Shown piece by piece: positions 26,536 to 39,767 of a stretch of 64,000 bases of DNA. Below the pieces are notes generated by a model. The model was not told the origin of the DNA. It ran no database searches and saw only the letters and a list, made by a program, of their open reading frames with translations. How positions within the stretch are numbered: position 1 is the stretch's first letter; every line of letters starts with the position of its first letter. The position numbers and the translations under genes are program-made. The stretch comes from Candidatus Freyarchaeum deiterrae. GTDB lineage: Archaea > Asgardarchaeota > Jordiarchaeia > Jordiarchaeales > Jordiarchaeaceae. The DNA lies in contig CP147778.1 in NCBI GenBank assembly GCA_037305845.1, positions 1,088,001 to 1,152,000 on the forward strand, written 5' to 3'.

Positions 26536-26631
26536 AGCCAGGTGGTGTAGCGGTCAAGCATAGGGGCCTCTGGAACTCTTATGAGTAGGAGTAAGCCTCG
26601 GACAGCAGTTCGAATCTGCTCCTGGCTACCA
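26536..26631 (+). tRNA. tRNA-Gln(CTG) with a 20-nt intron at 37/38 (26574-26593) and encoded CCA
   Basis: Acceptor stem AGCCAGG/CCTGGCT, anticodon stem GGGGC/GCCTC, T-loop TTCGAAT; the intron forms a BHB-like motif (CTCT/GGAG helix, GG^A and TA^A bulges). Confidence 0.95.
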
Positions 26632-36120: not shown

Positions 36121-36287
36121 GATAGTCTTAAAATTACTTATGTGAGATTTAATAACTTTAAAATAGTTAACTCTTATTGTTTGTTTATGACCAAAAATAT
36201 AAATATAAACGCGAAAGATTCACTTCTTCCGTATAATTAACCATAGAAATGCTTTTAATGGGGCTAACGCTTGTTTGTTATTAATCG

Positions 36288-36578
36288 GTGGTGAGAATAG
36301 TGAGTAAGAAAAAATGGACTAAGGAAGCTAAACCGGCCGAAAAGGAAGTTAGGAAAGTAGTATTGGACGAGGAACTAAAATCAACTATGGAAGAAGAAAT
36401 TCCAAAAATGAAGCTAGTTACCCCCTCAATCATATCAGGAAAGTACAAAATTCGAGTAAGCACTGCAAAAGAAGTAATCAGTGATTTGGAGCACAAAGGA
36501 AAACTAAAGATGGTAGAAGAAAATCATAGATTGAAAGTATACACAGCACCAGCGAAGGGTAAAGAAGAAGCTAGCTAA
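36288..36578 (+). CDS. rps25e: 30S ribosomal protein S25e
   Basis: KKKW, EIPKMKLVTPSIISGKYKIRVSTAK and VYT. Confidence 0.9.
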   Translation: MVRIVSKKKWTKEAKPAEKEVRKVVLDEELKSTMEEEIPKMKLVTPSIISGKYKIRVSTAKEVISDLEHKGKLKMVEENHRLKVYTAPAKGKEEAS

Positions 36579-36728
36579 AAAACTTAGTAAGACATTGATG
36601 ATAACGAAAAAGTGTTAAGCTTTCAAACATAATTATTTTAAAAATAAATTCAAATTACATCCGTTTATTATCCTTCGATTTTTTCATCCTATCGACTTTT
36701 TAGAGAGGGAAGCTCTCTTAAAAGATTT

Positions 36729-37190
36729 TTATCTTATTATGAACGCGCTTTTTATTTCTTCACTTACCAGTAAGTAAATCAGTATCAATATGTTTACAGC
36801 AACTAGGGGAAGTGCCATTAAGTCTGATAGAATAAGCGCCGATACAAAAAAGCCTAAGACGGATAGAACTATTGCTAAATAATAGGCCCAGCGCTTAAGA
36901 TTGGAAAATGTGTAGAAAACTACGATGCTAAAAACACCCCAGGTTATCAGGAAAACAAACCTGAAAAAGTTAATATTTATCCAGATATTTAGCATATAGC
37001 TTGAGCCAGAGACCAAAATACTGGATGCGGGGTCTATTGAGATGGGTAAGAGTAAAACGGTAATTGACAGATAGTTTCCGAGTTGTGCCCAAAATAACAA
37101 TGTGTATATTCCAAAAAAGAGCATCACAATACCTTGAATAAGGATAATAAGAGAAACTAAAGCAACATTTAAAGGTTGTTTTCCGACCAT
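36729..37190 (-). CDS. Four-TM membrane protein
   Basis: Hydrophobic helices and LKRWAYY. Confidence 0.7.
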   Translation of the reverse strand: MVGKQPLNVALVSLIILIQGIVMLFFGIYTLLFWAQLGNYLSITVLLLPISIDPASSILVSGSSYMLNIWININFFRFVFLITWGVFSIVVFYTFSNLKRWAYYLAIVLSVLGFFVSALILSDLMALPLVAVNILILIYLLVSEEIKSAFIIR

Positions 37191-37486
37191 TTTTCCAACC
37201 CTGATGACTCGTTGATATCTTTTTGGCGTTTACACATTTAAGTTTGATTGTCCAAACCCCTATTAAATAATTTGGTAAATTCAAAATGTAAGGGCGTCAT
37301 AAATTTTTTTTACCTATTATATTTTTTATTAATATAAAAATAGTGTTTTAACATAAATCGCCAGATGAAAAAAAAGAGTGAAAAATATTTGAGTTTAAAA
37401 AAGAAAAATTTAAATGGTTAACGAAACAAAAATAAGTAACAACATAACACTCCTTCTGATAAAGAGGGTACAAGGGAGGTCTTTTA

Positions 37487-37834
37487 ATGGCTAAACAGGC
37501 AAAAAAGAAAAACAAGGAAGAAACTGTACCAGAAGAGAATATGGTTTTTATTGGAAAAAAACCGACAAAGTAGATTCACGTTAGTGTTCTACGTCGAATG
37601 AGTTACGTTCTGGCTTGCGTTATTCAGTTTAATCAGGGTGCGAAAGAAGTAAGAGTTGTGGCGCGTGGAAGGGCGATTTCCAAGGCTGTTGATGTTGCGG
37701 AGATCGTACGCCAGCGTTTCTTGCCTGAGGGTGTAAAATTGGGTAAGATTACTATGGGCACCGAGATTATGGGAGCTAGTGCTGACGAAAAACGTAATGT
37801 TTCCACTATTGATATTCAACTCCTAAAAGCTTAA
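37487..37834 (+). CDS. albA: Alba chromatin/RNA-binding protein, split by an intron: join(37487..37568,37599..37834), 105 aa
   Basis: GGAGGT RBS then ATG at 37487. The spliced product reads ...[17 protein letters not shown]...[15 protein letters not shown]...RNVSTIDI. Confidence 0.9.
37569..37598 (+). other. Putative 30-nt BHB/BHL mRNA intron in alba
   Basis: CGAC/GTCG 4-bp helix, AAA and AAT bulges, inner stem GTAGA/TCTAC, in-frame TAG at 37571-37573. Confidence 0.85.
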
Positions 37835-38025
37835 AAGGTCTGAATCGGAATATTTCCTAGGAGTATGGTACTATACAAGTGGAAGTCCTATTAATTTGAA
37901 CCGAGTTACTCCAGTTTTTTTAGAATTGTAAGGTTTGTAAGAATTTTTTATAACTGTAATTCGTTCAAATAGAAAATATATAGCAATAAAAGTTGAATTA
38001 ATATAAATTATTACGGGGTTAAATA

Positions 38026-38388
38026 TTGCCAAATATTGAGTATGAAAAAACAGGTAAGAAAACTAGTATACATAGTGACTCAATTCCAATAGAAACGAAG
38101 ACTCTCGAGGATGTTAGGTGCGGAAACTGCGGATTGCCTCTCCTTATCCATGTTTTTTGGAGAGGTGAGAAGTACGAGCGCATAGTTGAGTGTAAGAAAT
38201 GTGAGATAAGTTTCTCGCTGGAAGGAAATCATAAACCTATCGATACAAAAGCAAATCCTGTGGGTAGTAATGTAAATCCTATTGATGCTAAAACAAATCC
38301 TGCTAAAGAGGCCAAACCAAAACCAGCTAAGAAGAGTAACGATGACAAAAAGGAAAGTATGGTGGATCGGCTTGTTCGATCATGGTGA
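38026..38388 (+). CDS. Zinc-finger hypothetical protein with a low-complexity tail
   Basis: CGNC...CKKC followed by short NPxxxK-type repeats. Confidence 0.65.
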   Translation: MPNIEYEKTGKKTSIHSDSIPIETKTLEDVRCGNCGLPLLIHVFWRGEKYERIVECKKCEISFSLEGNHKPIDTKANPVGSNVNPIDAKTNPAKEAKPKPAKKSNDDKKESMVDRLVRSW

Positions 38389-38436
38389 TGGAAGAAAGAT
38401 GGCTTGAGATTTAATTTTTTATAGGCTAGTGAAGTC

Positions 38437-39018
38437 ATGGTAGAAAAGGTCAGATTCGAGTGTGTTAAGTGTGGTAATTGTTGCAGGGATAAGAATTTCA
38501 TAATAACAATTACGGATAAGGATACTTTTCTACTGGCTAATCATTTAAAATGTGATCTTAAAGAACTTTTATCGAAGTATATTGGTTTTTATCAGGTTAG
38601 GAAAGAACTTGAAAACAGACTAGTTTTTCCAGCTATTTCAACATATAGAGGTAATGCTTTCCTGGGATTAAGAAAGAAGAGCGATGGTTCCTGTTTGTTT
38701 TTGAGGGATGATAATCTTTGCGGAATTTATGCAGCTAGACCTATGGTGTGCCGAAGTTTCCCTTTTACTTTTGAAGTTAAGGAGGGATGGCTTTCTTGGG
38801 GTCTAATGGCGAAAGCGGAGGAGATTTGCCCAGGATTGGGACAGGGTGAAATAGTCTCTGAGGAAAGTTTAGAAAAGATGGGGAGAGAAATAATTAGGAA
38901 CCTTAAGGAGTACAGAAAAGTAGTTTCAATTTGGAACCATCACGCAAAAGTTGAGCAGCTAGACCCGGCCTTACTGGTGAAGACATTTCTCGAAGAAGCA
39001 AATCTTACTCCTCAATAA
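38437..39018 (+). CDS. YkgJ family (CxxCxxCC) cysteine cluster protein
   Basis: FECVKCGNCC, CLFL, CGIYAARPMVCRSFPF and CPGLG. Confidence 0.9.
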   Translation: MVEKVRFECVKCGNCCRDKNFIITITDKDTFLLANHLKCDLKELLSKYIGFYQVRKELENRLVFPAISTYRGNAFLGLRKKSDGSCLFLRDDNLCGIYAARPMVCRSFPFTFEVKEGWLSWGLMAKAEEICPGLGQGEIVSEESLEKMGREIIRNLKEYRKVVSIWNHHAKVEQLDPALLVKTFLEEANLTPQ

Positions 39019-39263
39019 ACTTAACAAAATATTTTTGCCAGTTAGAGAAGACTAAAATTTTGGGATAAGCGTTAATTTTGCATCAAGTTAAAAGAACTGT
39101 TAAAAAAATTAGATAATTTTAGCTCATTACCTAGGGCGAGATTGATATTAAAAATTAAATTTTGAGGCTTAAATCTATTTTTTTAGAGTTGAGGATAATA
39201 TTTAATAGCATAATTAACCATAATAAATTGGCTCTTCTTGAATTGTTGGGGAGTGAGTCAATA

Positions 39264-39767
39264 TTGAAATTAGAGGAAGCGGCTCGGAAGGCTATAGACC
39301 TTTTAAGAGAAGCAGGCGAAAGTGGAATATATAATATCGAACTTGCGCAAAAACTAAAAGTTCCAAAACGGCGCGTTTATGACATAGTGAATCCTCTTAA
39401 ACCCTTGGGGCTAGTCGAAATAAAAAAGGAAAGGGGAAAAACAAAAATCTGCTGGGCGGGGAAAACCGAGGCGGTACTTAAACCAGAAAAAGAGAAGATT
39501 CAAGAAAAAGAAAAAAATCTCGTAAAAATTGAAACCGTAAAGCTGGTAGAAGATAATCCGCTCATTGAATCAGTTACAGGAGATCAGGGAGAAGAAGGTT
39601 TTAAATTCAATTGTGCGGCGTTAAGAATAAGTTGCGGCAACGCGTTAAAAGCTTGTAGAGTGTATCACGATGGATTCGAGGTAGTTGTTGAAACTGATGG
39701 AGGGAACTTGTTAGTGAAGCCTAACTCCCTGAAACCGAAGACTCCAAAAGTAAAATCAGTATTTTAA
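39264..39767 (+). CDS. E2F/DP-like winged-helix DNA-binding protein (ORF open from 39162; likely start TTG 39264)
   Basis: LAQKLKVPKRRVYDIVNPL..LGLV...ICWAG matches the E2F/DP RRxYD signature. Confidence 0.75.
   Translation: MKLEEAARKAIDLLREAGESGIYNIELAQKLKVPKRRVYDIVNPLKPLGLVEIKKERGKTKICWAGKTEAVLKPEKEKIQEKEKNLVKIETVKLVEDNPLIESVTGDQGEEGFKFNCAALRISCGNALKACRVYHDGFEVVVETDGGNLLVKPNSLKPKTPKVKSVF

Follow-up and report, generated by a model that had tools for sequence, protein, structure and literature searches.

Candidatus Freyarchaeum deiterrae carries an alba gene whose reading frame is broken by a stop codon close to its start. The question raised by this locus is whether a complete Alba protein can be made from it, and by what route. 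The genome is a single contig of 3,576,204 bases; the window is the whole stretch of 64,000 nucleotides that was analysed, and coordinates without a contig prefix refer to it. Close relatives are labelled Jordarchaeum, Jordarchaeia or Freyarchaeota in the databases. We put the probability at about 93% that the interruption is a 30-nt tRNA-type intron of the bulge-helix-bulge (BHB) kind in the alba pre-mRNA, cut by the endonuclease EndA and joined by RtcB.

The interrupted alba gene and its fold

The frame that opens at ATG 37487 reads MAKQ...IGKKPTK and ends after 28 codons at an in-frame TAG. Read on in the same frame, the sequence after the TAG gives IHVSVLRR and then MSYVLAC. The reading frames confirmed the original prediction that a frame preceded by a ribosome-binding site and closed by a stop is followed 30 nt later by MSYVLAC. 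The 30 nt split a Met codon after its first base, and removal of 37569-37598 yields a 105-aa protein with IGKKPTMSYVLA. The signature of the spliced junction is AAACCGACAATGAGTTAC, the bases brought together being CCGACAA-TGAG. Coordinates of the alba features and of the other BHB inserts discussed below are collected in Table 1.

Table 1. Features of the interrupted alba gene (window coordinates) and of other BHB inserts in the genome (contig coordinates)
Feature	Location	Strand	Details
Shine-Dalgarno-like GGGAGG	37474..37479	+	7 nt 5' of exon 1 ATG; from sequence
alba exon 1	37487..37568	+	27 codons and A of Met codon
Relaxed bulge-helix-bulge	37562..37600	+	From fold and alignment of 9 sequences
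alba intron, 30 nt	37569..37598	+	Inner hairpin 37570-37592; in-frame TAG 37571-37573
alba exon 2	37599..37834	+	TG of Met codon through TAA
cbf5 BHB intron, 32 nt	G000:C1:1483415-1483446	-	L213; splits catalytic Asp codon (HSGTLD-P) after base 1
pcm BHB intron, 32 nt	G000:C1:2244134-2244165	+	L214; in GQTISAPHM; 25-32 nt in five relatives
tyrS BHB intron, 30 nt	G000:C1:1873137-1873166	-	L215; directly 5' of HIGW motif
Adenosylhomocysteinase BHB, 29 nt	G000:C1:1876899-1876927	-	L217; apparently more breaks upstream
Aconitase-family large-subunit (sequence reading) BHB insert, 33 nt	G000:C1:2636158-2636190	-	L216; in frame, with stop

Exon 2 is annotated in the databases as a truncated Alba of 73-86 aa. 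The downstream ORF of 78 aa starts at an ATG whose A (37598) is the final intron base, and no Shine-Dalgarno-like motif was found in the sequence before this ATG. Its Pfam Alba match begins at position 12 and scores 69.5 bits; in full-length relatives the match begins at position 1-2 and scores 83-84 bits. The joined relatives P0018 and P0006 cover PF01918 from position 1/2 to 65 and match solved Alba chains, and thus hold the full domain including strand beta-1 and the K16/K17 loop. The segment absent from the 78-aa ORF is strand beta-1 together with the loop carrying the K16/K17 equivalents. Alignment of the full-length P0018 to solved Alba structures assigned strand beta-1 and the IGKKP loop to the product of exon 1, and this alignment and the late start of the Pfam match bear out the claim that the 78-aa ORF lacks the first beta-strand. 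Roles of K16 and K17 in Alba have been described, and K17 is essential to the RNA-chaperone activity of Sulfolobus Sis10b (PMC7498313).

For 37563-37600, the minimum-energy structure (-11.7 kcal/mol, 92% of the ensemble, z -2.46) is identical to the fold that had been claimed for the RNA. Its central helix pairs CGAC (37563-66) with GUCG (37593-96), and these 4 bp lie between two 3-nt bulges on opposite strands, AAA (37567-69) and AAU (37597-99). The intron-side helix next to the 5' bulge has 5 bp here and 3-10 bp in orthologues. The outer helix consists of the single pair C37562-G37600. Both the outer pair and the central helix are paired in 9/9 aligned sequences, with one compensatory change. 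A strict hBHBh' motif has an exon-side outer helix of at least 2 pairs; here one C-G pair was found, invariant in the aligned sequences, in agreement with the relaxed motif that had been predicted. The alba motif is of the relaxed BHB class, like most cbf5 introns. By the standard rule the cuts fall after the second base of each 3-nt bulge, that is after 37568 and after 37598.

The motif alone is no proof of an intron, because the genome has 49,122 matches to it, no more than to decoy geometries. Conservation at the same base in orthologues, together with contigs that miss exactly 30 nt, takes the alba intron beyond chance. Nothing pointed to a mobile homing-endonuclease intron, as the 30 nt contain no ORF and no such gene was found among the neighbours; a crude search for LAGLIDADG motifs around five other alba introns gave no match.

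The genome has four alba genes in total, the three further ones being intact paralogues. Neighbours of the interrupted gene encode S25, a DUF2127-like membrane protein, an ORF of unknown type and a CxxCxxCC protein. The ORF at window positions 39162-39767, which has an E2F/DP-type winged-helix match (PF02319, E 1.6e-9), is syntenic with alba in relatives. An Rfam search over 36200-38500 gave no matches, and the sigma-70 promoter and terminator scan is uninformative for an archaeal host. At 26536-26631 the window contains a tRNA with a 20-nt insert in the anticodon loop, which ARAGORN called Lys(CTT) when introns were searched for and Gln(CTG) when they were not.

Orthologues and contigs with the exact junction

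An alignment of the alba loci of relatives had been proposed as a check. An orthologue is present in 11/11 genomes of the order; nine of them carry an insert at the identical base and two are intronless. Insert lengths range from 27 to 40 nt: all six members of the genus have 30 nt, and the sister family has lengths of 27, 28 and 40 nt. The CGAC/GUCG helix and the outer C-G pair are invariant across the orthologues, and the inner hairpin differs wholly in sequence with its pairing kept. One metagenome contig (L116:1700-1780) has two tandem 31-nt BHB introns in alba separated by 8 coding bases, one at the common base and the other 8 nt upstream.

The predicted cut sites and the restored GKKPTMSYVLA stood up to this comparison. 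When the excision was slid from -4 to +4 (nine registers), only the canonical cut gave PTMSY in 12/12 orthologues, and the intronless orthologues (L013, L014) read GKKPTMSYVLA. The variable bases at the junctions are the first (A/T) and the last (A/T/G) of the intron, and since the last base varies, the Met codon of the unspliced sequence is TTG or GTG in seven orthologues. Exon 1 and the GGAGG are conserved in two families. The protein sequence of both exons is conserved against a background of diverging fourfold sites (7-15 of 23 identical). In a small, non-independent sample the alba intron was identical at 26-27 of 30 positions, compared with 21 of 33 to 26 of 32 for other introns.

The two intronless genomes are sisters (89/98 support, unstarred), and the other two members of their genus carry the intron. 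The tree is built on a short alignment and has several open forks; the simplest history read from these sequences would be an intron ancestral to the order and one precise loss (G007 and G008).

Full-length forms of this Alba were found twice among the protein relatives, solely from Logan assemblies. In species A the contigs from SRR28530378 and SRR28530379 lack exactly the 30 nt and are otherwise identical to the contig from SRR28530383, with 0 mismatches over 13,155 nt and 8,041 nt, respectively; SRR28530382 retains the intron, as does SRR28530383. In species B the 30 nt are missing in SRR28530378 (3 mismatches in 1,057 nt); SRR28530379, 81 and 82 retain the intron, as do the remaining assemblies that were read. 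The exact junction is thus present in molecules from two species, and in only two runs of the six-number series SRR28530378-83. Such a pattern would be expected if SRR28530378 and SRR28530379 had sequenced RNA, with the abundant spliced message exceeding its unspliced form. The intronless contigs are long (13 kb) and have genes on both strands, which gives them a DNA-like look, and they may represent genomic alleles without the intron. A study of Tengchong hot-spring cultures, with replicates r1 and r2, metagenomes and metatranscriptomes and 0.5-1.4% Asgard archaea (PMC11297162; PRJNA1095168), would be compatible with six runs of which two are RNA; the connection is our guess from the accession range alone.

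Another conceivable source of the joined contigs is a polymerase that jumped the hairpin while the libraries were prepared. This is unlikely: the flanking repeats measure just 2 nt and differ between the species (AA versus TG), and both species give the canonical product. Adenosylhomocysteinase was tried as a second spliced gene in the same runs and gave no case, the two full-length forms looked up having come from other runs. No full-length forms representing spliced cbf5, pcm or tyrS were present in the clusters checked. We infer that the joined alba molecules of the two sister species stem from RNA, and that splicing takes place in the strain of Ca. Freyarchaeum deiterrae itself.

Splicing enzymes and other interrupted genes

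Two EndA-family genes and RtcB are encoded in the genome. The catalytic EndA subunit has Tyr, His and Lys by alignment and is closest to the catalytic subunit of a crenarchaeal (alpha-beta)2 enzyme (3p1z_B, E 8e-43), a likeness that extends to the N-terminal loop region. In the second subunit the catalytic His is missing. Crenarchaeal-type hetero-oligomeric EndA is reported to cut relaxed motifs such as that of cbf5 (PMC2738675, PMC10485636). To judge by its genes, the organism would possess both a ligase and an EndA with activity on relaxed motifs. In Freyarchaeia and Atabeyarchaeia genomes 92-95% of tRNA genes have introns (PMC11291895). The rtcB gene (L197, G000:C1 near 1452800, minus strand) has a frame change between LPD and AHQGYG, near the conserved PD-H motif; the insert at this place failed the strict BHB rule.

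According to the proposed mechanism, the alba message would fold into the relaxed BHB, the (alpha-beta)2 EndA would cut it after 37568 and 37598, and RtcB would join the exons, rebuilding the Met codon and giving the 105-aa Alba. A message left unspliced would stop at the TAG and yield no working protein. The gene content suggests that EndA and RtcB are the enzymes that act on the alba RNA.

The whole genome was scanned under strict rules for BHBs whose excision joins two coding frames. Up to a length of 45 nt, 9 candidates appeared with the canonical cut, while ten decoy rules yielded 0-6 (mean 1.7); longer candidates did not rise above the decoy level and were left out of the count. The BHBs of cbf5, pcm and tyrS are conserved in relatives, with lengths of 27-32, 25-32 and 30-31 nt. 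The cbf5 intron has the same position as the crenarchaeal one and measures 27-31 nt in four relatives, one of which has no alba intron. The tyrS intron occurs in two genus members, and the frame is open in the sister family. The adenosylhomocysteinase gene is split in the genus and in genome G009, and intact and intronless in genus g2. An ORF for fbp aldolase/phosphatase (L212:366-1457) was also noted; the protein has 363-364 aa in most cluster members.

Introns of alba elsewhere were sought by screening about 200 alba matches. At the same base, an alba labelled Wukongarchaeota (L207) carries an insert of 36 nt, in which the central helix is compensated (CGGU/GCCG); its cluster also includes full-length members of 96 aa. 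A Thermoproteota alba (L060) has a 36-nt canonical BHB 8 nt upstream of the Freyarchaeum site. Two unclassified archaea (L086, L111) have inserts of 28 and 20 nt at a point 12 nt upstream of that site, and two other Asgard genomes (L204, L205) have one of 30 nt at a point 45 nt downstream of it. Three alba intron sites fall within 12 nt of the GKKP loop.

Weighing the explanations and comparison with known systems

The alternative named in the original prediction was readthrough of the UAG to give an Alba with a 10-residue insert; pyrrolysine, recoding or a suppressor tRNA could be the means. It would suit the 30 nt being in frame in the genus, the hairpin after the stop and the translation of these contigs with TAG=Q by some gene callers. 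Orthologous inserts of 28, 31 and 40 nt shift the frame and refute it, together with the TGA in the 27-nt orthologous insert and the lack of any PylS above cut-off in the genome. Moreover, TAG terminates 454/2,078 long ORFs, the Pfam match of a read-through product starts no earlier than position 13, and contigs with the exact junction exist, so that its chance is next to nil. Just as negligible is a bypass in which the ribosome skips the 30 nt of an unspliced message, in the manner of phage T4 gene 60, where a stop codon lies in a hairpin and the ribosome lands downstream. The alba stop codon does sit at the foot of the hairpin, but the take-off and landing codons are unmatched (ACA or AAG versus CGA), landing would give Leu or Val instead of the conserved Met in seven orthologues, and the joined sequence occurs as nucleic acid.

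It is very improbable that this alba copy is broken, or that just the 78-aa ORF is made, with the function covered by the three intact paralogues. Ca. Freyarchaeum deiterrae has the in-frame ATG at 37598 that such a product needs; however, seven orthologues have TTG or GTG in its place, and no ribosome-binding motif precedes this codon. The product would be missing beta-1 and the equivalent of the K17 that Sis10b requires (PMC7498313). Retention of exon 1 and GGAGG across two families, and protein conservation of both exons over diverging fourfold sites, also speak against a dead copy. Slightly less improbable is removal at the DNA level in part of the population, by intronless alleles or departure of a mobile element, the intron-bearing allele being silent. 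The length of the intronless contigs, which may come from DNA libraries, the intronless genomes of the order and the 96-aa members of the Wukong cluster would fit such removal. Against it, the element is single-copy, the intronless junction occurs nowhere in the genome of Ca. Freyarchaeum deiterrae, the intron is present in nearly every assembly of the genus, and its boundaries obey the rule of an RNA endonuclease. Exact DNA loss itself has its simplest source in a spliced RNA template (PMC2738675).

If the 30 nt are a spliced intron, their persistence is most likely due to their place inside a conserved motif, where only exact loss is tolerated; this would account for the alba intron and equally for those of cbf5, pcm and tyrS. 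Regulation is a further possibility. A wider proposal is that housekeeping mRNAs of Jordarchaeales and other Asgard lineages are routinely spliced in the tRNA manner and that Alba opens its own marginal BHB, limiting its own synthesis. We regard this combination, and the feedback in particular, as unlikely. Feedback, inferred in the original prediction, is plausible because Sis10b unwinds RNA duplexes and the alba BHB is marginal; the alba intron is also somewhat better conserved than the fourfold sites. If true, it would explain why alba introns cluster within 12 nt of one loop in unrelated archaea and why the alba intron is better conserved than the other introns compared. It is weakened because the paralogues could buffer the Alba protein, because enzymes with no evident link to RNA structure, pcm for example, carry such introns, and because two genomes manage without the alba intron.

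Spliced as proposed, a core nucleic-acid-binding protein of an Asgard archaeon would depend on protein-catalysed splicing, beside at least cbf5, pcm and tyrS, and a prokaryotic relative of eukaryotes would maintain several split protein genes with neither a spliceosome nor self-splicing introns involved. The proposal lends itself to direct testing, with a 39-nt substrate, known enzymes and public metatranscriptomes of the same genome (PRJNA1050611). Varied lengths, precise loss and a double-intron allele offer a natural series for study. Annotation is affected as well. The databases carry these Albas as truncated proteins, and for some short contigs (L200 and L203, with P0007 and P0035; also P0025 and P0036) the stop codon in the intron led the gene caller to assign TAG=Gln, a false recoding signal.

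In eukaryotes, unconventional splicing of HAC1/XBP1 removes a short structured intron by the stress-activated nuclease IRE1 and a tRNA-type ligase, and is regulated. The likeness to alba is functional only: a protein nuclease and a tRNA-type ligase remove a structured intron and the frame is restored. The nuclease is IRE1 instead of the tRNA endonuclease, and regulation is established for HAC1/XBP1 alone.

The BHB intron of cbf5 pre-mRNA was reportedly studied by Watanabe in 2002 and Yoshinari in 2006. It is found in Desulfurococcales and Sulfolobales, and as of 2009 introns in other archaeal protein genes were predicted and unconfirmed (Yokobori 2009, PMC2738675). Two archaeal mRNAs, those of cbf5 and HVO_1309, figure in a 2023 review as substrates of splicing by the tRNA endonuclease, the HVO_1309 mRNA of Haloferax volcanii being cut by EndA and found spliced (PMC10485636); the papers searched added no further established case. 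HVO_1309 resembles alba as an mRNA substrate of the archaeal tRNA-splicing endonuclease; it differs in being a single case with an alpha2 enzyme. The alba intron breaks the reading frame. With the non-canonical introns that interrupt tRNA genes in Freyarchaeia and Atabeyarchaeia (PMC11291895; bioRxiv 10.64898/2026.10.13.758758), the alba intron shares genome and lineage, motif and size class. Both papers deal with tRNA introns, and the preprint makes no mention of mRNA, cbf5 or alba. A literature search that covered few subscription papers gave no paper on an alba intron or on Asgard mRNA introns.

Like the cbf5 intron, that of alba is a short insert in a protein gene with a relaxed BHB cut between bulge bases 2 and 3, and it splits a codon after base 1 inside a conserved motif. 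Both introns also come in in-frame and out-of-frame lengths, both have been lost precisely in some lineages, and both occur in hosts with a hetero-oligomeric EndA. Unlike cbf5, alba is a chromatin/RNA-chaperone gene in an Asgard host, it holds one of several mRNA introns in the genome and not the only one, and its introns recur at several nearby sites in unrelated lineages. Splicing of cbf5 was established by cDNA and in vitro; the alba case is known here from sequences. Save for a multi-pair outer helix, every testable feature places the alba intron among the relaxed BHB introns, of which that of cbf5 is the typical example.
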